Positions 1 through 14,537 are shown, counted from the stretch's first letter. The stretch: 14,537 nucleotides of DNA from a bacterium (GCA_044869275.1 JBIOXB010000237.1:1-14537), one strand, 5' to 3'. The notes: generated by a model not told the origin, from the letters alone. Made by a program: numbers and translations.

Positions 1-14
1 CGCGCCTCGGGCCA

Positions 15-56
15 TCCCCCCGCCCCACCACCCGCAGGGTGGTGGGAGCGAGGAGA
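15..56 (-). other. Long GC-rich hairpin, structurally favoured on the minus strand
   Basis: Core CCCACCACCC (24-33) / GCA / GGGTGGTGGG (37-46). On the minus strand it extends to 19 bp with one bulge (47) and two G.U pairs. Confidence 0.5.
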
Positions 57-79
57 GTACCAAGCAGCGTCACAGCGAG

Positions 80-108
80 AATCCAATAAACATCTAAGAA
101 AGTGTCAA
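80..108 (-). promoter_or_regulatory. Possible leftward (divergent) sigma70-type promoter
   Basis: Perfect TTGACA on the minus strand (108-103), an AT-rich 17-nt spacer and a weak -10 TGGATT (85-80). Confidence 0.3.
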
Positions 109-230
109 CTAATTTCAGGACGAGACAGTGTAAGGTGCAATTCAAATACGCATCCATCATCCTCAGTTACTTTTGATGTAAAACTACTGGAGCAAAGGAC
201 CGTGGGAACCGTTAACGTGGATTCGCGCCG

Positions 231-238
231 AGAGGGAG
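231..238 (+). promoter_or_regulatory. Ribosome-binding site for gene 1
   Basis: AGAGGGAG immediately upstream of ATG 241 (GAGG 5 nt before the start). Confidence 0.6.
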
Positions 239-240
239 CC

Positions 241-3200
241 ATGGCTGAGAGCAGGAAGCGCTCTTTTTCGCGGAAGTTCTTTTCTGCCGCCGCTGCTTGC
301 GCCGCTGCTTGCGCCATGCTGCTCGGATTTGCTGCGCCGCATGCGCTGCTCGCACAGCAAAAGATCATGCCTTTGGGCAATTCCATTACCGAAGGCGTCG
401 GCTCGACCACCGAAGCAGGCTATCGCCAGCCCCTGTATGATTTGCTAACGAACGCCGGCGTTTCGTTCGACTTTGTCGGCAGTTTGCAGCACGGTAATGC
501 CAGTCTTCCCGACCAGGATCACGAAGGCCACGCCGGTATTCGCGCCGATGAATTGCAGGTGGCAAATTATCTCAGCGCCAATCCCGCCGACGCGGTTTTG
601 CTCGAAATCGGAACGAATGACATTTCCTCCAGCGAAAGCGCCGCGCAGGTGCGCGACGACATCTCCACTATTCTCGATGCCATCCAAGCATCACGGCCCT
701 CCGCGCGCACATATCTTTCCACGGTCATTCCCCGCACGGACAACAGTGCATTGCGAACCACAACGCAGAATTTAAATAATCTGTTGCCGGCATTAGTGCA
801 AAACAAGGTTACGGGCGGGCAGGACGTGGTGCTGGTTGACATTGCCGGACAATTTCTCGCCAATCCCAATTGGGACACCCAGTTGATGAGTGACACCAAG
901 CATCCCAACGACGACGGTTATGCGTTGATGGCGCAAGGATTTTTCGAGGCATTGCAGGGCGGCGGTAGCGGCAGCGAATTTGTCGATGATTTCAACCGCA
1001 GCTCGCTCGGCCCGGACTGGGCCGCGCACCCCGGTTTCGAAATCCAGAGTGGACAATTGGTGAACACTTCTACCACCGATGCTTGGAACAACCACCTTGC
1101 CATTCCCACGGTGATCGTCAATCCCAATGTTTTGGAATTCACCTACGGCTCGCTCGCGAATGCTGAAGGCCGCGAATTCACCTCTGCGGCCGTGATGCTC
1201 GACAATTCCACCACTACCGCCAACGGCTACATGGTCTTCCGCAACACCGGTTTTGCGCGTTTGTGGACTCTGGTAAACGGTGCGCCCGGAATAGAAGTGA
1301 TGCGCGTGAGCGGCGCACGGCCCGCACCTCAGGCCGGCGATGTGTTCAAAGTGGAATGGAACACGGACGCCGCGGCCCATCGTTTTGTGGTTTATTTGAA
1401 TGGCCAGGTCGACGCCACATTGAGTGATCCCGGAAAATTGCGGGGCAATACGCCGACGCAGTACGCCGGCATGCTGGTGCACGGCAACACCACGGACGGC
1501 GTGGATGATTTCCGCCTGGGCAGCAGCTCGGATTCCGAGCCGCCGGCGACAATCACCGACTTGGACGTCGCTTCCATCACCGCTTCTTCCGTGCAATTGA
1601 GCTGGACCGCGCCCGGTGACGACGGCGCCATCGGCGCCGCACGCGCGTACGATTTGCGCTACTCCACTTCGCCCATCAGCAGCGGCAATTTCAGCAACGC
1701 AACGGAAGTGCAAGGGCTCGGCAATCCCAGCGTGGCAGGCGTAATTGAAAACTTTATCGCGGGCGGCCTGCAAAGCGGCATACGCTATTACTTTGCGCTG
1801 CGCGCCAGCGACGAAGCCGGCAATTTCTCGGAAATCTCCAACGTCGTTGAGGCCACCACCGCCGCTTTGGTCACGAGCGCGGATGAATTCAACCGCACCG
1901 GACCGTCACTGGGCGCAAACTGGGCCGCGGACGCGCGCCTGCAAATCGTCAACAACGAAGTGCAGCACACCGCCACGCTGGATACGTGGAGCCCGGCGGT
2001 TTTCCAAAAGGGCCGCAACGCCCAGGAGGTTTCGATCCGGTTCGGCAACAACGCCACCACCTTCGGCGCGAATTTCGCCGGTATTTTGGTGATGGTCAAC
2101 GATTTCTCCGCCGCGCCCAGCGGCTACATGATTCAGCATTATAGTCAAAACGGCAGAACGCGCCTGTATCACATTCAAAATGGCAACGTGGATAATGCGC
2201 CGTTGATTAATGAGGGCCAGGCTTTCGGTCCGGCGCCGCAAGCCGGCAGTGTGATGACGGTGAGCATTCGCCGGGAAGCCGACGGGCATTATTTTGACGT
2301 CTACATCAATGGCCAATTCGACCGCACGCTAGTGGATGCGCAAAAGCGCGAGAACGGCACCTATTCCGGCTTTGTTTTGGAAAGTACGTTGGGCGCGGAA
2401 AATGCGATCACACGTTTCGTCGTGGGCGCACCGCCGGCCGATCCGGCGACTTTGCAATTGGCCGGCGGCAACAATCAATCCGCGCGCGCGGGCGAAAAGC
2501 TGGCGCAGCCTCTGCGGGTGAGACTGTTGGATGAATTCGCCAATCCCGTTGCCGGCGCGCAAGTGCAGTTCAAAGCGACGGTGGGACAGGCCTTCTTTTC
2601 GAAATCCGACGACAATATTCGCCTCGAAGCCGAAGCCGCGCAAATCAATGCGCCGTTGGTGACGGTCAATGACACCTCCGCTGCGGGCGGCAAATATCTG
2701 GTTTATCCCTCGCCGCAAGCTACGGCAGGCTCGGCAATTTTTACCTTCGACCTCCAAACCGCCGGCACTTATTACATTTGGACGCGCAGTTTGACGCCGG
2801 ACGCCTCCGGCCACGATTCGTGGATGGTCAGCGTCGATGGCGCGAATGCTTTCATCTATGACGTGTTTCAAGGTTCGCGCTCCCAGAATTGGGCCTGGGA
2901 TCAGTTGAGCCAGCGTGGCAACGGTCAGCCGGACAATCCGCAATTCGATCCCAAAACCTACAATTGGGAGGCGGGCGCGCACACCATCACGTTCGCAGGC
3001 CGCGCGCACGATACGCGCCTCGATAAGATTCTGATCACCAGCGATCCGGATTACGTCCCCGAAGGCAGGGAAGAAGGCGGCAATTTGACCGACAATAACG
3101 GCATTGCTTCCACCGAAGTCACGATGGGCAATCAGGTCGGACCGGTGGTGGTGGAAGCCAGTTTTGGCGCACTGGCGCCCGTGCTCTTCAATCTCACCGC

Positions 3201-6200
3201 GAAACCGGCTTTGCCCGGACAAATGGCGCTGGTTTCGGGCAACAATCAATCCGGGCCTGCGGGCCAGCCTTTGGCCCAGCCGTTCGTAGTCACGGTCTCC
3301 GACGGCTTCAGCAATCCCGTGCCGAACGGCGAAGTGGGCTGGGTGGTCACGCAAGGTAATGGCCAGCTTTCCTCTTATTTGACCAGGAGCGACAGCACCG
3401 GCAAAGCCGCGGTGCTCTTCAGCCCCGGCAACACCGCCGCTGCGAACAAAGTTGAAGCGCGCGCGGCGTTCACGAATCAGGCCATCACATTTTCCGCTAC
3501 CACAACCACCGGCATTGGTGCGCAAATCGCCTCAGTGAGCGGCAATGAGCAAACGGGCGGCGTGGCTTCATCTCTGGCGCAGCCCTTGGTCGTGCAGGTG
3601 AGCGACGCCAACGGCGTGGCGATCGCGCGTTTTCCGGTGGAATTCGTAACGCTGCGCGGCGGCGGCAGAACCACGGGCAACAATTCGATTGTCAATCCCA
3701 GCTTTCAAAGCGTGAGCAACGCTGTGCCCTCGGATTGGACGTTGGAAGGCACGCCCACGGCGCAGGAAGTAAAAATCTTCGAAGAGGGCGGGCATCGCGC
3801 GCTGTTGGTCGAGGCCACTCGCACCGGCGTCGGTGTGTCGCAGGGCGTGGGCTACGCCGCCAACAGCAACTACACGCTTTATTTTTGGGCCAAGGTGGAC
3901 AGCGGCACTCTACGCGTCACTTGGCGCATGAATGACGCGAGCGGAAATACCCAGGACAAAACCGTCGACATTACGCGGGCGGCGGCGGGCGCGGACTTTC
4001 AACTCTATGCGCTTTCCGCCAGCAATGGCCTTGCCGGATCGCGCAATTTATTTTTCCGCACGCAAGGCTTGGGAAAATTTTACGTCGATGACGTGAAGGT
4101 TGTGCCGAACACCGGCAGCGACGGCCGTGTGGCCGCAACTTGGACGCTCGGCGACACCACAGGCGTGCAGCAAGTGCAAGCCGTGGCACGCGGCAACAAT
4201 GCCGATCTCAGCGGTTCGCCGGTGCTTTTTTCCGCCACTGCCACCGCCGGCGCGGCGGCAAAATTGGTTGAAATCAGCGGCAACAATCAGCTCGCTTCTG
4301 CCGGCCAGCAGGCAGCGCCGTTGATCGTGCAAGTGGCGGACAATTTTGGCAACGGCGTGGCGGGGGTGAGCGTGCAGTTTCAGGTCACGGCCGGTGGCGG
4401 TGCTCTGAACAACAGCGGCACCACGGCTACCGTGGCCAGCGATGCCAACGGCCTGGCGAGCGCAGTGCTGACTTTGGGAGCGGCTGCAGGCGTCGACAAC
4501 ACCGTGCGGGCGAGCGCAAGCGGTTTGACCGGCAGCCCGATCAACTTCACCGTCAAGGCCGCGATCCCCGCCAATCTCGTGAAAGTATCTGGCGAGGGCC
4601 AGATCGTGACCGCCGGCGCATTGGCGCCGCAGCCCTTGGGCGTGCGCGTGACCGATGCGGGCAACAACGGCATTGCCGGCGTGGCGGTGGCTTTTTCCGT
4701 GTTGAGCGGCGGCGGCACGATCAATGGCAGCAGCAGCGCGGAAATTCGCACGAACACGCAAGGCGAAGCACCGGCGATGTTCGTGGCCGGCCCGGTCCCC
4801 GGAGGCTCGAGCACGGTGCGCGCAACCGCCACGTATAATAACCAGCCGCTCCAGGGTTCACCGCGCCAATTTACCGTGCGCACCGCGACGCTCAAAGCCA
4901 TGGTCCTGGTCTCCGGCAACAATCAAACCGGCAGCGCCGGTGATCCGCTGGTGAATGCTTTCAAAGTTTCATTGCTAGACACCCTCGACCACGGCGTGCC
5001 GCAGCAGGACATTACGTTCAGTGTCTTCGAAGGCAATGGCAAGCTCAACGGCACAGCCAGCGCTATTGCTTTGAAAACCGATTCCACCGGCGCGGCGAGC
5101 GTGAAACTCACGCTGGGCAATTTGCCCGGCACGAACAACAACAAAGTGCGCGCGCAAGCCGCCACCATTGTGAACGGCTCGCCGGTCATTTTTCAGGCCA
5201 GCGCCAAAGCCGGCGCACCATTCGTGCTGCAGAAAATTTCCGGTGACAGCCTTTCGGCCGTCGTGAACAATGCCGTGCCGGCACCGTTCGTGGTGAAAGT
5301 CACGGACAAGGTCGATAATCCTCTGGCCGGCGTGGAGGTAACATTCGAAGTGACCGCCGGCGGCGGCAGCATGAATGGCGCAATCAAAGACACGCTCAAA
5401 ACCAATGCGAGCGGCATCGCGCAAACGACGTTGACCGTCGGCAATACCTCCGGCCTGTTCAACAACCAAGTGCGCGTGCGCGCGTTCAACGGCACGCTGG
5501 AATTGAACAATTCGCCGCTGCTCTTCCGGGCCTCGGCCACGCCGAGCCGCGCGCGGGCGATGTTGCTGAGTGCCGGCAATCGCCAGAGCGGATTGGCGGG
5601 CGAAGCGCTGGCGCAAAGGCTGCGCGTGCGCGTGGTGGACGTACAAAACAATCCGGTGAAAGATCACGCCGTGCGCTTCCGTTCCACCGGCGTGGCGAAT
5701 GGCTCGTTCGCAAACGCCACCAGCCGCGACACGACGGTGATTTCCGATGCCAATGGGTATGCGCAAATCACCTGGCTGCTCGGCAGCGCCGTGCGACCCG
5801 ATAGCCAAACTGTGAGCGCGAGCGCCAACGATGGCGTGCAAGCGTTGCAAGGCTCGCCTGCCACCTTTGTGGGCTATGCCGTGCCGGGCCTGCCCAATGC
5901 CATCGCCTCGAGCATTGCGGCGAATAGTCCGGTGCTGGCAAACGGCCAGGCGAAGGCAAACGTCACCGTCACCGTGCGCGACAAATTTGGCAACGCGATT
6001 GCCGACCGCAAGGTCACGCTGGTGGTTTCCGGCAGCTTGAATGACATCGTGCAACCGAACAGCAACACCGATGCACAAGGCCGCGCCACCGGCACGGTCG
6101 CCTCCACCAAAGCGGAAACCAAGGTAATCACCGCGAAAGTGGATGATATCTACACTCTGGGCGTGGGCGCGCCAGTTCGCTTTGAAGCTTTGGCGGCCTC

Positions 6201-8550
6201 ACAAATCATTGCGCACAGCGGCAACAACCAAACCGGCAACATCAACACCGCATTGCTGCAGCCTCTGGCCGTGCGCGTGGAGGATGATTTCCGCAACGGC
6301 GTGAAAGGCATCACGGTGAATTTCTCGGTGGATGCCGGCGGCGGGCGCATCTCCGGTCCGGCTACCGTGGTCACGGATTCGAATGGCGTCGCCGGCGTCA
6401 TGTACGTGCTCGGCCAGAATCGCGTGGAAAACCGCGTGCGCGCGACTTCCACGGGACTGCGCAATTCGCCGGTCATTTTCGTGGCCAATGCGGTGAATCA
6501 AATCGCGCGCAAGCTGGTGGCGACGGCGGGCAACAATCAAACCGGCGTGATTTTGGAAAATCTACCCAGGCCTTTGACCGTGCGCGTCACCGATCAAAAT
6601 GACCGCCCGGTGTTCGGCACGGCGGTGAATTTTGAAGTGACTTTCGGCGGCGGCCAGGTCAACGGCGGCCAGCAAGCAGTGGTGAATACGAATGAATTTG
6701 GCGAGGCGAGCGTGACTTGGCGTTTGGGCAACACCGCCGGCACCAACGTGGTGCGCGCCAGTTCAGGCAGTTTGATCGGCTCGCCGCTGGATTTTCAGGC
6801 GCAAGCACAAACCGGCGCGCCGGCCAATCTGGTGATGCAAAGCGGCAACGGTGCCGCCGGCGTTGTGAATCAGGAATTGGTCACGCCGCTGATGGTGCGG
6901 GTGACGGATGCCACCAACAACGGCGTCGATGGCGTGCCCGTGTTCTTTGAACTGATTCAAGGCAGCGGCCAGCTTTCGCCCACCGTGGTGTACTCGGCGA
7001 ACGGCGGTTTTGCCTCGACCAAGATCACTTTTGGCAATGAAAGCGGCGACCGCCGCGTGCGGGCAAGCGCGCAGAGACTGAACGGCTCGCCGTTGTTCTT
7101 CACCGTGACTGCGCGCGCTGCAAACGCGACGGCAATGCAGGCCGTCACGCGCACCAACAATCAACGCGGCACCACCGGCCTGCCGTTGAATTTCCCGCTG
7201 CAAGTGAAGATTACCGACGCGTTCGGCAATCCCATCAGCGGCGTGAATGTCGATTTTCTCGTGAAACGTGGCGGCGGCAACCTGGGCGGCAGTCCGACAC
7301 AGACGGTCGCGAGCGATGCCCAGGGCCTCGCGCAGGTGCCATGGACGGTCGGCCCCGGCCGCAATGAAGCCGAAGCACTCAGCGCAGGGTTGGCGGGCTC
7401 GCCCGTGCAGTTCGTGGCCACCGGCGTCTCCGGCAATTACTTCCCAATCTTTGCGGAGGTGCAAGACCAAAACGTGCTGGAAGGTGATCGCCTCGAATTG
7501 GTTCTGAATGCGATCGACGCGGACAACGATCCCGTTCGTTACGGCGCGTCGAATCTGCCGCCGGGGGCGGTGTTCGATTCGCTCGGCACGCGCATTTTTA
7601 CCTGGAAGACGGATGAGAACAGCGGCGGCCGGTATGAAGTCAGCTTTTTTGCGTATGACAATCGCGGCGGGGTTGATGAAGAATTGGTCATCATCACGGT
7701 GGCAAACGTCAACCGCCCGCCGGTGATCGTGAGCCGCTCGCCGCGCGGCGGCACAGTTCCGGACACCGCCATCGCCGGCGGCACGATCACAATGAGTGTC
7801 ATCGCGCAAGATCCCGATAACGACGTGCTGAGTTACCGCTGGCTGGCCAACGGCCAAATGACCAACACCATCACTAGCACCTTCGTGTTCGGCAGCGAAA
7901 TCAAATGGAGTTACGTCGAAGCATGGGTGTTCGATCAAACCGATACGGTGAAAACCGCGTGGTACATCAAAACCCCGGTGCAGATGCAGGCCTTTACCGC
8001 GACCGCCCTGGCCAGCAACCAGATTCAATTGGAATGGCAAACCGCGGCTCAAATCAACAGCGCCGGCTTCAACGTATTGCGCAGCCGCAGCTCCTCCGGC
8101 AATTATCAGCGCCTCAATGCGGAATTGATTCCGGCGAATAGCGAAGGCCGCTACACCTACGCCGACGCCGAGGTGCAAGCCAACGAGCGCTATTTCTACA
8201 AGCTCGAAGAAATAGACATGCAAGGCAATGCCACGCTGCACGGCCCAATTTCGGCAACGGTGGCCGCACCCATGACCTTCGAGCTGATGCAGAATTATCC
8301 GAACCCGTTCAACCCGACGACGAAGATCAGTTACTCCGTGCCGCGCGACGTGCAGGTGAAGCTGACGATCTACAACCTGCTCGGCCAGTCTGTGCGCGAG
8401 CTGGTTAATGAAACGCAAAGAGCCGGATTCCACACGCAAGTGTGGGACGGGCGCGATGCCAACGGCGGCTTGCTGCCTTCCGGCTTGTACATCTATCGCC
8501 TCGAGGCAGGTGACTTTAGAGCGGTGAAGCGGATGATGTTGATGAAATAA
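241..8550 (+). CDS. Giant secreted modular SGNH/GDSL esterase-adhesin (SGNH + 2 ConA-like sandwiches + FN3 + 13 Big_1/invasin-like Ig repeats with 2 inserted CBM-like domains + Ig domains + T9SS type-A/FlgD-like C-terminal domain), 2769 aa
   Basis: Uninterrupted ORF (track 202..8550). ATG 241 preferred: AGAGGGAG at 231-238 and a basic/hydrophobic signal peptide MAESRKRSFSRKFFSAAAACAAACAMLLGFAAPHALLA|QQ. Domain motifs are listed in the sub-features. Confidence 0.95.
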   Translation: MAESRKRSFSRKFFSAAAACAAACAMLLGFAAPHALLAQQKIMPLGNSITEGVGSTTEAGYRQPLYDLLTNAGVSFDFVGSLQHGNASLPDQDHEGHAGIRADELQVANYLSANPADAVLLEIGTNDISSSESAAQVRDDISTILDAIQASRPSARTYLSTVIPRTDNSALRTTTQNLNNLLPALVQNKVTGGQDVVLVDIAGQFLANPNWDTQLMSDTKHPNDDGYALMAQGFFEALQGGGSGSEFVDDFNRSSLGPDWAAHPGFEIQSGQLVNTSTTDAWNNHLAIPTVIVNPNVLEFTYGSLANAEGREFTSAAVMLDNSTTTANGYMVFRNTGFARLWTLVNGAPGIEVMRVSGARPAPQAGDVFKVEWNTDAAAHRFVVYLNGQVDATLSDPGKLRGNTPTQYAGMLVHGNTTDGVDDFRLGSSSDSEPPATITDLDVASITASSVQLSWTAPGDDGAIGAARAYDLRYSTSPISSGNFSNATEVQGLGNPSVAGVIENFIAGGLQSGIRYYFALRASDEAGNFSEISNVVEATTAALVTSADEFNRTGPSLGANWAADARLQIVNNEVQHTATLDTWSPAVFQKGRNAQEVSIRFGNNATTFGANFAGILVMVNDFSAAPSGYMIQHYSQNGRTRLYHIQNGNVDNAPLINEGQAFGPAPQAGSVMTVSIRREADGHYFDVYINGQFDRTLVDAQKRENGTYSGFVLESTLGAENAITRFVVGAPPADPATLQLAGGNNQSARAGEKLAQPLRVRLLDEFANPVAGAQVQFKATVGQAFFSKSDDNIRLEAEAAQINAPLVTVNDTSAAGGKYLVYPSPQATAGSAIFTFDLQTAGTYYIWTRSLTPDASGHDSWMVSVDGANAFIYDVFQGSRSQNWAWDQLSQRGNGQPDNPQFDPKTYNWEAGAHTITFAGRAHDTRLDKILITSDPDYVPEGREEGGNLTDNNGIASTEVTMGNQVGPVVVEASFGALAPVLFNLTAKPALPGQMALVSGNNQSGPAGQPLAQPFVVTVSDGFSNPVPNGEVGWVVTQGNGQLSSYLTRSDSTGKAAVLFSPGNTAAANKVEARAAFTNQAITFSATTTTGIGAQIASVSGNEQTGGVASSLAQPLVVQVSDANGVAIARFPVEFVTLRGGGRTTGNNSIVNPSFQSVSNAVPSDWTLEGTPTAQEVKIFEEGGHRALLVEATRTGVGVSQGVGYAANSNYTLYFWAKVDSGTLRVTWRMNDASGNTQDKTVDITRAAAGADFQLYALSASNGLAGSRNLFFRTQGLGKFYVDDVKVVPNTGSDGRVAATWTLGDTTGVQQVQAVARGNNADLSGSPVLFSATATAGAAAKLVEISGNNQLASAGQQAAPLIVQVADNFGNGVAGVSVQFQVTAGGGALNNSGTTATVASDANGLASAVLTLGAAAGVDNTVRASASGLTGSPINFTVKAAIPANLVKVSGEGQIVTAGALAPQPLGVRVTDAGNNGIAGVAVAFSVLSGGGTINGSSSAEIRTNTQGEAPAMFVAGPVPGGSSTVRATATYNNQPLQGSPRQFTVRTATLKAMVLVSGNNQTGSAGDPLVNAFKVSLLDTLDHGVPQQDITFSVFEGNGKLNGTASAIALKTDSTGAASVKLTLGNLPGTNNNKVRAQAATIVNGSPVIFQASAKAGAPFVLQKISGDSLSAVVNNAVPAPFVVKVTDKVDNPLAGVEVTFEVTAGGGSMNGAIKDTLKTNASGIAQTTLTVGNTSGLFNNQVRVRAFNGTLELNNSPLLFRASATPSRARAMLLSAGNRQSGLAGEALAQRLRVRVVDVQNNPVKDHAVRFRSTGVANGSFANATSRDTTVISDANGYAQITWLLGSAVRPDSQTVSASANDGVQALQGSPATFVGYAVPGLPNAIASSIAANSPVLANGQAKANVTVTVRDKFGNAIADRKVTLVVSGSLNDIVQPNSNTDAQGRATGTVASTKAETKVITAKVDDIYTLGVGAPVRFEALAASQIIAHSGNNQTGNINTALLQPLAVRVEDDFRNGVKGITVNFSVDAGGGRISGPATVVTDSNGVAGVMYVLGQNRVENRVRATSTGLRNSPVIFVANAVNQIARKLVATAGNNQTGVILENLPRPLTVRVTDQNDRPVFGTAVNFEVTFGGGQVNGGQQAVVNTNEFGEASVTWRLGNTAGTNVVRASSGSLIGSPLDFQAQAQTGAPANLVMQSGNGAAGVVNQELVTPLMVRVTDATNNGVDGVPVFFELIQGSGQLSPTVVYSANGGFASTKITFGNESGDRRVRASAQRLNGSPLFFTVTARAANATAMQAVTRTNNQRGTTGLPLNFPLQVKITDAFGNPISGVNVDFLVKRGGGNLGGSPTQTVASDAQGLAQVPWTVGPGRNEAEALSAGLAGSPVQFVATGVSGNYFPIFAEVQDQNVLEGDRLELVLNAIDADNDPVRYGASNLPPGAVFDSLGTRIFTWKTDENSGGRYEVSFFAYDNRGGVDEELVIITVANVNRPPVIVSRSPRGGTVPDTAIAGGTITMSVIAQDPDNDVLSYRWLANGQMTNTITSTFVFGSEIKWSYVEAWVFDQTDTVKTAWYIKTPVQMQAFTATALASNQIQLEWQTAAQINSAGFNVLRSRSSSGNYQRLNAELIPANSEGRYTYADAEVQANERYFYKLEEIDMQGNATLHGPISATVAAPMTFELMQNYPNPFNPTTKISYSVPRDVQVKLTIYNLLGQSVRELVNETQRAGFHTQVWDGRDANGGLLPSGLYIYRLEAGDFRAVKRMMLMK
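361..957 (+). other. SGNH/GDSL hydrolase domain (CE3/XynB-like subtype) in gene 1
   Basis: Block I KIMPLGNSIT (G-N-S at 376-384), GYR...FDFVGS...HEGHAG, block III IGTND (607-621), block V DTKHPN (D-x-x-H, 892-903). Confidence 0.9.
976..2427 (+). repeat. Two homologous ~180-aa D[DE]FNR beta-sandwich (ConA/lectin-like) domains (976-1521, 1876-2427) flanking an FN3 domain (1531-1860)
   Basis: Shared motifs in both copies: D(D/E)FNR..LG..WAA, GYM, RL....NG, PAPQAG.V..V, H.F.VY.NGQ.D.TL.D..K, Y.G. FN3 motifs: LSWTAPGDDG...YDLRYS...GL..G.RYYFAL.A.DEAGN.S. Confidence 0.75.
2431..7428 (+). repeat. Array of 13 intimin/invasin-type bacterial Ig-like (Big_1-like) domains
   Basis: Twelve units begin with SGNNQ-like motifs and contain PL.V.V.D..gN.V.G..V.F.V..GGG...T...G.A...TLG...G.N.V.A....GSP..F.A. 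One unit (5893-6189, SSIAANSPVLANGQAKANVTVTVRDKFGNAI) is of the invasin D3 type. Confidence 0.85.
7435..8268 (+). other. Cadherin/He_PIG-like Ig domain, a second Ig domain, and a 'PVEL..F'-type FN3-like domain preceding the C-terminal sorting domain
   Basis: NY.P.F....DQ.V.EG..L...L.A.D.DND...Y...NLP.GA.FD.....FTW (7435-7710). TPVQMQAFTA......I.LEWQTA.Q.NSAGFNVLRS...YTY.D......YFYKL...D..G (7972-8268). Confidence 0.7.
8269..8547 (+). other. T9SS type-A (Por secretion) C-terminal sorting / FlgD-Ig-like domain
   Basis: P.TFEL.QNYPNPFNPTT.I.Y......V.L.IYN.LGQ.VR.LV......G.H...WDGRD..G..LPSG.YIYRL.AG.F...KRM.LMK at the extreme C-terminus. Confidence 0.9.
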
Positions 8551-9127: not shown

Positions 9128-12100
9128 ATGGCACGGCAAGTTCGGCTCGTCCCGTTTTTAATTATTCTGATTTTAGGGCTGTTTTCCAATGCCGTGTGGC
9201 CACAAGCGAGGGAAAAATATGCTCCACAACAGGTCATCGTCAAACTCAAACCCCATGCGAAGAAGAGTGCCTCCATAGCGAGCTTGACGCAAAGCCTGCA
9301 CGCGACCGTCCTCCGCAGCTTTCCGAGCATCGGCGCCGAGCTTTGGGAAATCTCTGGTGTGTCGGTGGCAGAGGCCGTGGCCCAATATCGCAACGATCCC
9401 CGTATTGAATACATCGAGCCGAACTACAAAGTACATGCAATTCGCGCCACACCTTCTGCTGTTCCAAATGACCCACGGCTAGCCGAGATGTGGGGGTTGC
9501 ACAATACCGGCCAAACCGGCGGTACGCCGGATGCCGATATCGATGCCTTGGAAGCGTGGGACATTGAGACCGGCGATAGTGTCGTGGTCGGCATCATCGA
9601 CACGGGCATCGATTGGCAGCATCAAGATTTGGCGCAAAATATCTGGACCAATCCCGGTGAGATCGCCAACAACGGAATTGATGATGACGGCAACGGGTAC
9701 GTGGATGACCTCCACGGGTGGGATTTCTACAACAATGACAATAATCCCTTTGACGGGGACGGCCACGGCACGCACGTCGCCGGCACCGTCGCGGCGGCGG
9801 GAAATAATGGCATCGGCGTAACCGGCGTGAGCTGGTCTGCCCGGCTCATGGCGCTGAAGTTTCTCAGTGACGGCGGTTCGGGAACCGATGCCGATGCGAT
9901 TCTCGCGATCGAATATGCCTCGCGCAACGGCGCTCGAGTGACCAATAATAGTTGGGGCGGCCCAGAGTTTTCGCAGGCGCTTTACGATGCCATCGCCGCC
10001 GCAGATCGCGCCGGCGTTTTATTCGTGGCCGCGGCGGGCAACGACGGCTGGGACAATGACTTCATTCCGAATTATCCCTCCAATTATGATCTGAACAACA
10101 TCATCGCGGTGGCGGCCACCAACCACTACGATCTGTTAGCGGGGTTTTCCAACTTCGGCAGAGAGTCGGTCGATCTGGGTGCGCCTGGCGAATTCATTCT
10201 CAGCACGATTCCGGGCAACCGCTACGCTACCTACAGCGGAACTTCGATGGCCACACCGCACGTGGCCGGCGGGGTGAGCTTGATATGGTCGCGCGCGCCG
10301 GGGTTGACTTACGCGCAAGTGAAAGATCTGATTCTGCGCACGGTCGATCCTTTGCCGAGCTTGCAAGGCCAAACCGTGAGCGGCGGCCGGTTGAATATTC
10401 ACCGCGCCTTGATCTTAGCCGAGCCGGACAGCATTGCGCCGGCGGGCGTGACCGATCTGGCCGTCAGCACCATCAAATCCAATTCCATCACACTAACTTG
10501 GAAGGCCAGCGGCGATGACGGCACCGCTGGCCGCGCCGCGCAATATGATTTGCGCTATGCCGCAACCCCCATTGACACCAGCAGTTTTCCTCAGGCGCGC
10601 CGCGTCGCGAATGTTCCGCCCCCGCAAGCCGCCGGCACGCAGGAGACCTTCACGGTCGAAGGATTGGATTTCAACACGAGGTATTATTTTGCCTTGAAAG
10701 TCATGGACGAGCAGGGCAATACTTCTGTTCTTTCGAATTCGCCTGCGGGCACAACGCTGGGCATTCCGGATATTACATTTGCGCCTTCGGCGATGGCGGA
10801 AACCCTGCTCACCGGCGCACCCTCAACCCGTGTATTGCGTGTTTTCAATCAAGGCGAGGGCACGCTCGATTTCGCGCTGGCGATTTCGGTAGCTTGGCTC
10901 TCTGCCACGCCAAGTGCCGGCACGGTGCCGGCCCATGACAGCGCCACAGTCACGCTCAACTTCGATGCCCTCGGCTTGAACGGCGGCACCTATCAAACAG
11001 ATCTCGTGATCAACAGCAACGACCCGGACGAGGGCGTCGTGCAAATGCCGGTTCATTTGCACGTCATCGGCGCGCCCGACATCGAAATCGCATTGCGGGC
11101 CATCGATTTCGGCGGTGTGTTGATTGGCGATACCGGCACTGTCAAATTGAATGTTTCAAATCCCGGCACGGACCTTTTGACCGTAAACAGCATTTTTACG
11201 AATTTGAGCGCGGTGACGATCTTTCCCCAAAGTTTCAATTTGGCCCCGAAAGCGTCGACGGAAGCAATTGTCCGCTTCCTGCCCACCAGTGCCGGTGTGG
11301 TGGAGGGGGCGCTGCAAATCGAAAGCAATGATCCGGACGAGCGGGTGTTGAGCGTGCCGCTGCGAGGCGAAGGGCTCGAGCCGCCGAAAATTGTGCTTTC
11401 TCCGGAGGCGCTGTCGGCGAGCTTGTTTACCGGACAAATCTCGCAGCAAATCTTCAGCATCGCCAACACTGGCCGCAGCGATTTGCGCTTCGATCTCGCC
11501 GTTGACAATGTCAAAGTACCCGCCTTTTCATTGAAAGCACGCCGCATTTCTGATGCGCAGCGCACCACGAGGGATTGGCCGGCGCAATTGCAACAAGCAG
11601 CGCAGCAGGTGATTGCTGGAGTACGATGGCAGTCCATGGCTTTGGAAAATGCAGAAGCTGCGCTGGCAGCCAATCGTGAGGCGCTTGCGCAATTCCGTAG
11701 CCAGCTTTCCGTCTACGCCGATCTGGTGAGCCGCGCCCGCACGATAGCGGCCCTGCCCGCTATCGGTGTCGCCGGCGCTTTTTCCGCGAGAATGATGTTC
11801 GATTTGCTTGAGGATCCTGACTTGGTCAGCAAATACACCTTCACCGATCTTGGCGACAATTTTGTCCTGGCCACGATTCAAAGCTTCGAGGCCCTGATCA
11901 TCAATGAAGGGGACGCCGCCCTTTCCATCACAGAAGCGCAAGCCTTGCGCAGCTACACCGCGGCGGGCAAAAATGTTTTTTTGGGGATGGACGACATGGA
12001 TGAGATTGGCACGGCGGCGCAAAGCGAAATCTTTCCATTGTTTGGAATTTCAGCAGTCGCCGACCGCAATTTTTTGTTTGGATCATTGAATCCGCAGAAT

Positions 12101-14537
12101 CCGATCACAAAAGACGTGGCGGCGATGGACAATTTCATCAACACTGACAATGATTTCTATACGCTGAATGGCGCGGATTGGGTTTTTGCCGGCGTGGAGG
12201 GAGGTTATTATGGCGTGTCACATCGGCTTCGGGGCCGCACCGTGCTTTTCGGCGAGATTTTGTCTGAAATTTGGGAAAGCGGCGTGAACAACCAAAAGCT
12301 CATAGCGAATGGCATCGATTGGTTGATTGCCGGCGGTGCAGGTTGGGTGGCGCTCGATACGACTGCCGGCGTGGTGCCGGCCGGTGAACGGCTCGAGGTG
12401 GAAGTCACTTTTAATGCCGTCGGGCTGCGTGGAGGCGATCACACCGCCGAACTCATCGTCACCAGCAACGATCCGGGCGAGAAGCGGAGCGTGGTACCGA
12501 TCCGCTTGCGTGTCACCGGTGCACCGGATATTGCCGTCGCACCGGATACACTGAATTTTGGGGGACTATTCGTGGGCGTTTCCGCCTCATTGAAGGTGGA
12601 AGTGCAGAACCTGGGCACCGAGGATTTGCTGATCACAAATGCGGCCACGAATCGGCCGGATTACACGATCTCGCCGCGTTTTGCCGGCGTCAATCCCGGG
12701 GAAAAACAGATTTTCAACGTGCGCTTTCTGCCTTCTGCGCCCGGCGATCTTTCCGGCACGCTTGCTTTTACCAGCAATGATTCCGACGAGGCGACATTCG
12801 TAGTTACATTGCTCGGCGAAGGATTGATCCCACCGGACATTGCGGTGCAGCCCGACTCTTTCTCATTCACTTTGAACGGCGGCGATAGCACCTCAGCCGT
12901 AATGGCCATCACCAACACCGGCGGCAGCCCGCTCAATTTTGCCATCCGGGATGAAGAAGCCGCCAGCGCGACGATTTCCGCCAGCCAAAGAATCTATTGG
13001 AGCAAATTCTGGTCTACGGCGCCGGATACCATGCGGCGGAGCGATCTCGACGGCGCAGAGCGCGAAAATCTCTTAAGCGTGTCGAGTGATATTGCTGGCA
13101 TGGTGATCGACGAACAGCACCTCCGGATTTATTTTGCTGATGCAGAGGAGGGCGTCATTCGCTCGAGCAATTTGGACGGCAGCGAGGTGAAGGTTTTGGT
13201 GAGTGGTCTGGCCATCCCGGCTGACGTGGCTCTGGATGTCGCGGGCGGTAAAATGTATTGGACTGATTTTGGCACTAACACCATCGGCAGAGCCAATCTG
13301 GATGGCAGTGGCGTAAGCATCATTGTGCAGGGCACGGGCAAGACCCATGTCGCTTCAGACTATTGGATGGTGTATGCACCCGCCACGCGTCAGCCCAACT
13401 TGTCACCAGAGCAAAAGGCCGCATTGCTTTCGAGCCCATGGGGTATTGCTTTGGATTTGTTGCATGGCAAAGTTTACTGGACGGAACAAAACGGCGATCG
13501 ACTTAGCCGCGCCAACCTGGATGGCAGCCAGCCGGAGACCATTATTTCATCCGGGCTGAGCGGCCCGCGCGGCATGAAACTGGATCCGGTAGCCGGCAAA
13601 ATTTATTTTGTGGACAGTTTCAATAACGCGATCAAGCGCGCCAATTTGGATGGCAGCGCAGCCGAAACCCTGCTCCAACTCAGTGACGTCAATCCTTTGG
13701 ATCTCGAGCTGGATCCGGCAACACAAGAGTTTTACTGGACGGATAACCTCTCCGATTTGATTGAAAAAGCCAATGTGGACGGAAGCAACCGGCGCGCCAT
13801 TATTACCGACCCGGCTTTTGACATCGACGGCCCGATTGGCCTCGCGTTGCTCTCCGGCAACAATTGGTTGACGGCAGCGCCCGTACAGGGTGTGATTGCG
13901 CCGGGCGCCATCGCAGAGATCGGCCTGAACGTGAAATCCCAGAGCTTGTTGGGTGGCCATCACCGCGCCGCGGTGTTCATTCAATGCAACGATCCTGACG
14001 AGGCTAGAGTGCGCGTGCCGGTACACTTGCAAGTCATCGGTGCGCCACTCATCACTTTTTCGCATGATAGTTTGGATTTTGGCGAAGTTTTTCTCGGCGT
14101 CTCGGCGCGGGATACGCTCATCATTTCCAACAGCGGCAGTGATTCATTGCAGGTCTTCAGCCTCTCCTCCAGCCATAGAGATTTTGAGGTCGCGGCGGCC
14201 GGATTCCCGCTTGCGCCGGGCAAGAAACAAATCGTGCCGATTGTGTTTTCGCCCAGCGCAGTCAGCCGCATCGATGGCGCCCTGACCATTGCCAGTAACG
14301 ATCCGAAACGCCCCCTCGCCACGGTCTTGTTGTTCGGGCAGGGTATCGTCCCGCCGGAGATTGCGGTGCAGCCGGAAACCTTGCGCGCGGATCTGAAAAC
14401 CGGAGAAACTCGCACACAAGCTTTGACGCTCTCCAACAATGGCGGCAGCCCATTGCAGTGGAAGCTGACCATCAATTTTGCCGAGAACTTGAGCGTATTG
14501 CATCACAGTCCGCTTTTCTCTTCCAACCAAAGGACAG
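9128..14537 (+). CDS. Large secreted S8 (subtilisin-like) serine peptidase with FN3, alternating Ig-like (BACON / choice-of-anchor-D / ASH-like) repeats and inserted GATase-like and YWTD beta-propeller domains; 3' partial (>1803 aa)
   Basis: Manual translation from ATG 9128 finds no stop before the window end. Signal peptide MARQVRLVPFLIILILGLFSNAVWPQ; prodomain (QVIVKLK...EAVAQYRNDPRIEYIEPNY); catalytic Asp in IIDTG (9599), His in HGTHVAG (9764), oxyanion Asn in AAGND (10040), Ser in GTSMATPHVAG (10244). Confidence 0.95.
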   Translation, partial: MARQVRLVPFLIILILGLFSNAVWPQAREKYAPQQVIVKLKPHAKKSASIASLTQSLHATVLRSFPSIGAELWEISGVSVAEAVAQYRNDPRIEYIEPNYKVHAIRATPSAVPNDPRLAEMWGLHNTGQTGGTPDADIDALEAWDIETGDSVVVGIIDTGIDWQHQDLAQNIWTNPGEIANNGIDDDGNGYVDDLHGWDFYNNDNNPFDGDGHGTHVAGTVAAAGNNGIGVTGVSWSARLMALKFLSDGGSGTDADAILAIEYASRNGARVTNNSWGGPEFSQALYDAIAAADRAGVLFVAAAGNDGWDNDFIPNYPSNYDLNNIIAVAATNHYDLLAGFSNFGRESVDLGAPGEFILSTIPGNRYATYSGTSMATPHVAGGVSLIWSRAPGLTYAQVKDLILRTVDPLPSLQGQTVSGGRLNIHRALILAEPDSIAPAGVTDLAVSTIKSNSITLTWKASGDDGTAGRAAQYDLRYAATPIDTSSFPQARRVANVPPPQAAGTQETFTVEGLDFNTRYYFALKVMDEQGNTSVLSNSPAGTTLGIPDITFAPSAMAETLLTGAPSTRVLRVFNQGEGTLDFALAISVAWLSATPSAGTVPAHDSATVTLNFDALGLNGGTYQTDLVINSNDPDEGVVQMPVHLHVIGAPDIEIALRAIDFGGVLIGDTGTVKLNVSNPGTDLLTVNSIFTNLSAVTIFPQSFNLAPKASTEAIVRFLPTSAGVVEGALQIESNDPDERVLSVPLRGEGLEPPKIVLSPEALSASLFTGQISQQIFSIANTGRSDLRFDLAVDNVKVPAFSLKARRISDAQRTTRDWPAQLQQAAQQVIAGVRWQSMALENAEAALAANREALAQFRSQLSVYADLVSRARTIAALPAIGVAGAFSARMMFDLLEDPDLVSKYTFTDLGDNFVLATIQSFEALIINEGDAALSITEAQALRSYTAAGKNVFLGMDDMDEIGTAAQSEIFPLFGISAVADRNFLFGSLNPQNPITKDVAAMDNFINTDNDFYTLNGADWVFAGVEGGYYGVSHRLRGRTVLFGEILSEIWESGVNNQKLIANGIDWLIAGGAGWVALDTTAGVVPAGERLEVEVTFNAVGLRGGDHTAELIVTSNDPGEKRSVVPIRLRVTGAPDIAVAPDTLNFGGLFVGVSASLKVEVQNLGTEDLLITNAATNRPDYTISPRFAGVNPGEKQIFNVRFLPSAPGDLSGTLAFTSNDSDEATFVVTLLGEGLIPPDIAVQPDSFSFTLNGGDSTSAVMAITNTGGSPLNFAIRDEEAASATISASQRIYWSKFWSTAPDTMRRSDLDGAERENLLSVSSDIAGMVIDEQHLRIYFADAEEGVIRSSNLDGSEVKVLVSGLAIPADVALDVAGGKMYWTDFGTNTIGRANLDGSGVSIIVQGTGKTHVASDYWMVYAPATRQPNLSPEQKAALLSSPWGIALDLLHGKVYWTEQNGDRLSRANLDGSQPETIISSGLSGPRGMKLDPVAGKIYFVDSFNNAIKRANLDGSAAETLLQLSDVNPLDLELDPATQEFYWTDNLSDLIEKANVDGSNRRAIITDPAFDIDGPIGLALLSGNNWLTAAPVQGVIAPGAIAEIGLNVKSQSLLGGHHRAAVFIQCNDPDEARVRVPVHLQVIGAPLITFSHDSLDFGEVFLGVSARDTLIISNSGSDSLQVFSLSSSHRDFEVAAAGFPLAPGKKQIVPIVFSPSAVSRIDGALTIASNDPKRPLATVLLFGQGIVPPEIAVQPETLRADLKTGETRTQALTLSNNGGSPLQWKLTINFAENLSVLHHSPLFSSNQRT
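10427..10756 (+). other. FN3 domain in gene 2
   Basis: DSIAPAGVTDL......SITLTWKASGDDG..G.A.QYDLRY...GL...TRYYFALKV.DE.GN.S..SN. Confidence 0.85.
10766..14537 (+). repeat. Alternating A/B Ig-like scaffold: A1 10766-11071, B1 11072-11380, A2 11381-12520 (split), B2 12521-12829, A3 12830-14041 (split), B3 14042-14350, A4 14351->end
   Basis: A units: P.I...P..l...l..G......l.I.N.G...L.(F/W) ... W....p..G.v.......v.F.a.GL.GG.....l.I.SNDP.E....vPv.L.V.G. B units: AP.I......lDFG.v.vG......l.v.N.G...L......P......v.F.P...G...G.L.i.SND.......v.L.G.G. Confidence 0.85.
12989..13855 (+). other. Six-bladed YWTD (LDL-receptor class B / LY repeat) beta-propeller
   Basis: Six motifs IYWSK (12992), IYFAD (13127), MYWTD (13253), VYWTE (13472), IYFVD (13601), FYWTD (13730), each followed by a (R/K)(A/S)(N/D)(L/V)DG-type motif. 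Most are preceded by P.gla.D. A closing PIGLAL strand follows the last repeat. Confidence 0.9.

Follow-up and report, generated by a model that had tools for sequence, protein, structure and literature searches.

The window analysed here, a stretch of 14,537 nt, is the entire contig C237 of the genome bin G000 (6.67 Mb). It ends within the ORF of a modular protein, here termed the rack protein, whose features are given in Table 1. The domain order is prodomain, S8 protease, FN3, and A1-B1-A2-B2-A3-B3-A4, after which the contig ends. The N-terminus was judged by eye to be signal-peptide-like. The S8 motifs are intact (DTG at 9599, HGTH at 9764, AAGND at 10031, and GTSMA at 10238; PF00082 score 210 bits), and the Asp/His/Ser triad, the oxyanion Asn, and the prodomain of S8A subtilases are present. 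The stalk of the protein follows the plan (N-half/cargo/C-half/intact Ig)n. The two halves make up a type A host domain, the intact domains are of type B, and the point at which a cargo is inserted is referred to as the socket.

The region upstream of the rack gene (202-8550) encodes a 2782-aa T9SS protein with an SGNH hydrolase, FN3, and Big_1 repeats. Two of the Big_1 repeats appear to be split at one shared loop by CBM-like inserts of approximately 150 aa, at about 2600-3085 (weak GH115_C match) and about 3675-4110 (CBM_4_9, E 5e-4).

Table 1 Features of the rack-protein gene and of the likely tail ORF on contig C210. Positions refer to the window unless another contig is named.
Feature	Position	Strand	Evidence and remarks
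Rack-protein ORF	9128..14537	+	probable ATG start at 9128; runs off the contig end; about 1800 aa visible
Fervidolysin-type prodomain and S8 subtilase domain	9200..10351	+	Pfam PF22148 E 5e-16; PF00082 E 4e-62
FN3 domain	10448..10723	+	PF00041 E 5e-7
A1, uninterrupted host Ig domain	10763..11074	+	HMM E 2e-31; empty socket at 10888-10895
B1, intact ASH/HYDIN-type (choice-of-anchor D) Ig domain	11075..11380	+	profile matches
A2 N-half	11381..11506	+	model (strands A, A', B, C), HMM
Cargo 2 leader, predicted loop and two helices	11507..11749	+	model; lowest confidence region
Cargo 2 (class G5), ThuA/GATase1-like alpha/beta domain	11750..12343	+	4jqs Z 16.8
A2 C-half	12344..12523	+	model (strands D, E, F, G), HMM
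B2, intact Ig domain	12524..12829	+	PF22544, NF012200
A3 N-half	12830..12955	+	two-unit model, HMM
Cargo 3, YWTD beta-propeller	12956..13864	+	PF00058 E 3e-29; LRP4 3v64 Z 35.5
A3 C-half	13865..14044	+	two-unit model, HMM
B3, intact Ig domain	14045..14350	+	profile matches
A4 N-half	14351..14476	+	HMM E 3e-7
Slot-4 insert start (leader)	14477..14537	+	best match U4-class leader, weak alone; C210 start supports
Likely tail ORF on C210 (L076)	G000:C210:3572-5623		U4 cargo end, C-half, cohesin, dockerin-like stretch (by eye), T9SS sorting domain

A first-pass annotation of the sequence had described one uninterrupted type A domain followed by two that are split by about 280 and 305 aa, and all motifs were recovered as described. 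In A1, NQGEGTLDFALAISVA (10847-10894) is directly followed by WLSATP at 10895. NTGRSDLRFDLAV of A2 stops at 11503 and the domain resumes with WVALDTTAG at 12344, with 280 codons intervening, while 305 codons separate NTGGSPLNFAIR of A3, which stops at 12949, from WLTAAPVQG at 13865. The corresponding stretch of A4, NNGGSPLQWKLTI, stops at 14473. An HMM whose input was restricted to 21 uninterrupted A domains from other proteins matched A1 as a whole and A2 and A3 as two pieces each. The N-halves of A2 and A3 matched HMM positions 1-43 and 1-46 (E 2e-5 and 4e-4) and the C-halves positions 34-107 and 45-107 (E 1e-14 and 8e-13), respectively; the A4 N-half was matched as well. For A4, the presence of the N-half agrees with the earlier description, but the further insert that was asserted is not visible in the window, because contig C237 ends 21 codons past the N-half. 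Profile comparison found B1, B2, and B3 each whole, as had been claimed for the type B domains (PF22544 E 6e-53; NF012200 177 bits; also PF15780).

The A2 unit (380 residues) was modelled with AlphaFold2 using a 32-row alignment (pLDDT 89, pTM 0.78), and the model was compared with 48,161 structure chains. The model range 1..380 superposes on single ASH/PapD/MSP domains with just 100-114 aligned residues, which argues that residues 1-45 and 322-380 of the model form one ASH/PapD-like domain. Superpositions were obtained with CEP192 (6fvi, Z 14.2, rmsd 2.8), 7ptb (Z 12.9), the MSP domain of VAP-A (6tqr, Z 12.0), and the Vpr protease (8jmw, Z 12.2). The insert exits after strand C, the third main strand (residue 45), and the leader of cargo 2 has a pLDDT <50 at residues 48-56. 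In a two-unit model (887 aa, pLDDT 86), all four halves form strands with high confidence at an overall pTM of 0.43. A Foldseek search of the PDB with the one-unit model listed cargo-type matches alone. The modelled A2 unit thus conforms to the proposal that the split halves refold as one Ig domain, and the cargo would project sideways off the stalk axis. Among structures of eukaryotic central-pair ASH domains, 9ijj_P (1067-1231) and 7sqc_F0 (288-463) align with about 100 residues over 165-176 chain positions and may carry insertions at a comparable loop.

The core of cargo 2 superposes on ThuA-like 4jqs with 190 aligned residues (rmsd 2.9) and on GATase1-like 3rht with a Z of 15.6, so that a class I glutamine amidotransferase fold is predicted; no Pfam match below E 0.01 was obtained. 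The position taken as the nucleophile elbow, which we presume from the G-x-C motif, is occupied by Asp, not Cys, and Cys is present in one of the 32 alignment rows at each of two candidate elbow columns. None of 4997 candidates (364-2000 aa) proved to be a stand-alone relative of cargo 2 at E 1e-5, which is weak evidence. Cargo 3 is a YWTD propeller (PF00058, LDL-receptor class B repeats), which in the two-unit model aligns with LRP4 (3v64) over 254 residues with an rmsd of 1.8.

Relatives were collected by a search with the stalk, which gave 683 matches, all of them from metagenome assemblies. The best 120 were examined, and 99 of these carry pairs of N- and C-halves; together with the window protein, they form a set of 100 proteins with 442 pairs. 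The insert comprises 200-350 aa in 399 pairs, ≤12 aa in 22, and 13-99 aa (leader only) in 15. The junction from B to the next N-half is tight in all 369 cases and that from C-half to B in 372 of 383; inserts are found at the same point of the host domains, and the postulated fixed socket is borne out. In 348 of 360 cases, 100-119 aa separate a C-half from the next N-half, and the remainder contain one extra domain of about 120 aa. Because this spacing is nearly constant and the exceptions carry one extra domain, B is regarded as uninterrupted throughout the 100 proteins. A second protein set contained 11 gaps >300 aa among 528. A count of 15,879 rack proteins at E 1e-30 was rejected, since these matches include proteins with B repeats only.

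The 410 inserts of the 100 proteins fell into 34 groups by BLAST; the class labels (G5, U4, and so on) are our own. Pfam supports NIDO, MAM, LamG, DUF4350, DUF4394, Kelch, glutamine cyclotransferase-like, LVIVD, LTD, GEVED, whole S8 with prodomain, and M43 cargos, and lectin-like folds and propellers are also among the classes. Whole S8 proteases with prodomain occupy sockets in P0044, P0120, L020:4505-5761, L059, and L065, and M43 metalloproteases in P0094 and P0104. No Pfam match was found for 17 of the 30 scanned cargos. The conserved U4 cargo of about 220 aa (L070:9755-10564 and 34 other units) had neither a Pfam match nor a usable match in the ESM Atlas, and U6 and U19 likewise gave no Pfam match; the three are candidate new domain families, and the flanks delimit them and many GATase-like groups exactly and hence provide ready construct boundaries. 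By analogy, the non-catalytic cargos probably serve as binding domains.

The first-pass annotation had suggested that cargos be collected between the two halves across the lineage, and dozens of classes were obtained in this way. The 100 proteins show 76 cargo orders, a number that is inflated because some proteins are fragments; 43 orders occur in the 63 S8-headed proteins, and 76 of the 100 proteins mix broad cargo groups. In a further set, 97 of 131 proteins carry at least two cargos in 94 orders, 33 are S8-headed, and 22 more sequence groups were recorded. Sequence comparison indicates that the split-socket plan is common to about 200 related proteins with dozens of cargo classes. Since the halves refold in the model and since the cargos vary and their orders differ between homologs, neither separate, independent half-domains nor identical inserts in a fixed order, the two outcomes that would speak against the proposed rack, were encountered. 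The heads are exchangeable, too: L070:4211-14056, L071, and P0003-P0005 combine stalk and FN3 with an Asp-box/BNR-type head (PF13088) instead of S8. In L017 and L029, the rack genes are broken into overlapping frames by frameshifts or assembly errors.

Relatives span Zixibacteria, Eisenbacteria, Krumholzibacteria, Marinimicrobia/Fidelibacterota, Ignavibacteria, Bacteroidota, Rhodothermales, Calditrichota, and Acidobacteriota. Among 41 related genomes, 23 gave a match at E 1e-20 and seven (G000, G004, G007, G013, G016, G021, and G025) contain strong full-length C-B-N blocks; none was found in the same-genus genome G001.

The assembly breaks at the fourth host domain. Contigs of two runs of one study, one of which may be the source of the window, break at position 14352, the second base of the A4 N-half. 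The piece starting there is 1020 and 1061 nt long, with 186 nt of it inside the window, and would, by the lengths in relatives, comprise the N-half, a U4 cargo, and 85-135 nt of the C-half. Its depth is 21.2 versus 12.1-13.7 for its neighbours in run X1 (1.6-1.75 times) and 5.3 versus 2.5-4.9 in run X2. X1 contains no second copy of B3 at ≥85% identity, and the ends of the piece were found on no other contig of the bin, which contains no pieces below 2 kb. The missing ends and the higher depth fit a near-identical second copy of the slot-4 cassette, in the rack gene or elsewhere, which would explain the assembly gap; such a recent copy is likely, and a second strain sharing just that piece is a possible alternative source of the depth. 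No joint skipping a whole cargo was supported in the four runs searched, in contigs from which rare variants are dropped. Joints with short sides in S8 motifs or YWTD repeats were taken as belonging to other organisms.

Contig C210 is likely the end of the rack gene. Its first 21 residues match the ends of U4 cargos best (21 of the top 25 among the 410 inserts), and over 664 aa it shares 62.5% identity with the tail of P0001, the closest relative among the best 120 of the 683 matches. The ends of C237 and C210 do not overlap, and synteny with the gene downstream of the relatives' racks is not kept on C210. Judging from C210 and the relatives, the A4 insert would be a further cargo, of class U4. 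The genome encodes SprA (670 bits) and has 150 matches to T9SS sorting domains; one of them (TIGR04183, 39 bits) lies at the end of C210, which we infer to continue the rack ORF, so that the rack protein would be exported by the T9SS with its signal located on C210. Such export is not universal in the family, because a PNPF-type C-terminal motif is present in 48 of the 99 relatives (from the best 120 of the 683 matches) and some end in dockerins.

Host halves and cargo are usually inherited together. In 287 of 516 units (39 expected), and in 77 of 78 at ≥80% identity, the unit closest by identity of N- plus C-half carries the same cargo. The tree of a 55-unit family requires 12 cargo changes (minimum 11, shuffled 32.9), with YWTD (19 units), G5 (8), and U4 (4) each forming one clade; 81 of the 91 supported cherries in the tree of 572 units share their cargo. 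These results would be expected if each cargo had entered the loop once and whole units alone had evolved since then, apparent swaps being gene conversion of the arms or tree errors. The flanks of the differing slot fit this reading in part: they are clearly weaker in three of seven pairs of proteins that differ in one slot, and less alike also between the orthologs of the same-genus genomes G004 (-/G5/YWTD/U4/YWTD) and G007 (-/G5/YWTD/G3/YWTD), which differ solely at slot 4. Within proteins, near-identical halves around different cargos can reflect conversion of arms without movement of cargo. Nevertheless, evolution by whole units only is unlikely, as orthologous flanks enclose unrelated cargos in P0063/P0085, in slot 2 of the G016 ortholog (MAM/DOM/YWTD/G11/YWTD), and in P0097/P0098. 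At slot 4 of P0063/P0085, the N-halves are 74%, the C-halves 64%, and the tails 76% identical around unrelated cargos, and the slot-4 cargo matches the other protein's slot 1 at 76%. P0100 and P0111 (head 88%, tail 92%) differ in slot 1, a one-slot difference like that of the G004 and G007 orthologs, and in P0075 halves with 93% identity flank unrelated cargos. The C-half and tail of C210 are closest to those of P0001, where the slot holds YWTD, yet C210 begins with the end of a U4 cargo. Empty sockets are, moreover, nested among filled ones (P0017 slot 3, P0001 slot 4).

Incongruence between scaffold and cargo phylogenies, for which the first-pass annotation had proposed a test, is partial. 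It is evident for the DOM13 cargo, for which three origins are forced, one of them inside the G5 scaffold clade (support 99/97), but the number of changes in the family tree is close to its minimum. The tree of all units requires 227 changes (minimum 41), its starred branches forcing just 1-7 origins per class; trees of 102 columns are weak. Along the C-B-N block, a linkage map gave no more than a weak excess of identity, between C-half and upstream cargo and between N end and downstream cargo, and it carries no weight here.

The opposite reading, a strong version of what the first-pass annotation had proposed, is an active cassette-exchange system in which the half-domains are kept for use as recombination arms, with high-rate switching of cargos within or between lineages. 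The likely recent copy at 14352, bounded by half-domains, would be in line with it, as would P0122, a protein with ten slots in which unrelated cargos lie between halves of up to 91% identity, and P0033, which matches P0015 except for one unit lost between N/B arms of 86-90% identity, although an assembly collapse could account for this loss. Four of 22 genes show patchy identity that includes exact runs of 25-80 nt and drops at the cargo edges. Most arms are too diverged: those of slots 1-3 in the window are 51-52% identical at the DNA level with a longest exact run of 14 nt, the median over 145 pairs in the 22 genes is 54%, and of the pairs compared within proteins, just 4 of 747 and 8 of 789 have halves ≥80% alike around different cargos. 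Recombinase, integrase, and RT families were absent from 101 of 107 flanking ORFs at 21 loci (E 1e-10). Two HTH_38 matches upstream of rack genes (L016:550-1566 and L018:12-983), presumably IS30-type transposases, were taken as incidental. Silent donors, that is, other G5 or U4 copies, were not found among the ORFs and contigs of G000 (94% complete, the bin being without pieces under 2 kb). The GC3 of the cargos in the window is 0.60-0.63 versus 0.67-0.69; a foreign origin of cargos on this basis was rejected, because the GC3 of cargo and scaffold is equal over 32 genes (p 0.69). A dedicated diversification system is thus not supported, and high-rate exchange is quite improbable; the half-domain flanks may act as recombination arms on occasion, as single-slot swaps, the patchy arms, and the slot-4 copy suggest, while as a rule N-half, cargo, and C-half travel as one. 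That the halves are not one domain at all, being beads on a string or a permuted domain of each C-half and the next N-half around B, draws on the invariant, contiguous C-B-N block but is largely refuted and very hard to maintain against 21 natural uninterrupted N+C domains and A1, arrays that begin with N and finish with C, single split domains without B, and the superposition of the one-unit model on single domains.

Three such single split host domains lie in unrelated T9SS proteins of G000 (C120:24485-28852, C137:29302-32088, and, judged by eye, C213:50359-54423), where the inserts appear to be NIDO-like, DOMON/CBM9-like, and, again by eye, jelly-roll plus PKD, respectively.

The explanation that we consider probable is that of a subtilase, likely secreted by the T9SS, with split, refolding stalk domains whose cargo sets are reshuffled by ordinary recombination. 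In the stalk, intact ASH/PapD-like Ig domains would alternate with homologous hosts split after the third main strand, whose halves would refold around an inserted module, likely a binding domain; the non-catalytic cargos may hold the protease on particulate protein or matrix substrates. Duplication and deletion of units, together with homologous recombination inside the constant Ig blocks, would reshuffle the module sets. Most events would carry N-half, cargo, and C-half together; in a minority, the cargo would be replaced by crossovers at or near its edges or deleted, leaving an empty socket with or without leader. Because a C-B-N block of 200 codons lies between all cargos, the reading frame is preserved and a complete Ig domain restored by any crossover in register, so that shuffling would be viable without special machinery. 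A broader, doubtful extension is that in FCB-type bacteria the ASH-like half-domain pair serves as a general socket, with cassettes still being copied between slots and genes by half-bounded gene conversion, as the slot-4 copy would suggest, in a live combinatorial display of cargo from dozens of families that include enzymes.

Given that the socket tolerates inserts of 130-460 residues, many folds, and whole proteases, it represents a natural scaffold for multi-domain display. Domain annotation misses such split hosts, and the exchange of nested domains becomes a testable question with long reads.

Programmed diversification systems (vls/pil gene conversion, shufflons, and DGRs) have constant flanks around a variable part. 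The rack resembles them in its constant flanks; in contrast, no silent donor array, recombinase, or RT was found for it, and its arms are mostly far too diverged. The host Ig family is otherwise known from cilia and centrosomes. The B domains match the ASH/PapD-like repeat profiles PF22544, PF15780, and NF012200 (HYDIN, CEP192), the C-B-N profile matches Hydin (E 5e-48), and the modelled A domain superposes on the C-terminal Ig domain of Bacillus Vpr, on CEP192, and on the MSP domain of VAP-A. Unlike in the rack, the domains of HYDIN, CEP192, choice-of-anchor D proteins, and Vpr are described as uninterrupted repeats.

The gingipains RgpA/Kgp and HagA of Porphyromonas gingivalis contain interchangeable adhesin modules (CAD, DUF2436), flanked by ABM1/ABM2 motifs and arranged in combinatorial orders between strains, and ABM2 has been proposed as the partner of ABM1, according to the parts of the two sources available (PMC5266723, PMC10319874). 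As far as these accounts describe them, they share with the rack a protease, T9SS-secreted in the gingipains and likely so in the rack, followed by interchangeable modules between recurring flanks; they differ in the C25 protease, the two module types, and the proteolytic processing to a non-covalent complex. ABM1 and ABM2 may together form one FN3-like domain.

The closest parallel is found in RTX adhesins (MpIBP, Vibrio cholerae FrhA, and Aeromonas hydrophila AhLap), in which, in the available portions of the sources, a ligand-binding domain buds out of split Ig-like domains (PMC12077191, PMC10865825), and for which mix-and-match domain orders and single-domain swaps are described in what was accessible of a preprint (bioRxiv 2025.09.30.679566). 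From these portions, both systems have several discontinuous Ig domains per protein with intact extenders between them, and the rack domains, by model and sequence, likewise appear to close around the insert. In the BIg domains of the adhesins, the split is described there as lying behind the first strand or ahead of the last two, whereas the ASH/PapD-like rack domain is split after strand C; the adhesins are secreted by the type I route and carry CBM, PBD, vWFA, or beta-roll cargos. The rack family differs from them in its strict A/B alternation with as many as 10 sockets, in heads that are proteases or of other types, in tails that are mostly of the T9SS or dockerin type, and in dozens of cargo classes, whole S8 and M43 proteases among them; the window protein itself has an S8 head and the likely tail C210 with cohesin and T9SS sorting domain. 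The first-pass annotation knew of no description of such a system. This holds for split ASH/choice-of-anchor D domains with cargo, none of which were described in the literature searched (most subscription journals lying outside it), but not for the principle, which is published for the RTX adhesins in the portions cited. The rack is the published split-domain principle in another Ig family, at another loop, and probably with another secretion route. Split-domain display, so far a feature of RTX adhesins, is thereby extended to a large, previously undescribed family of secreted proteins of uncultured bacteria.
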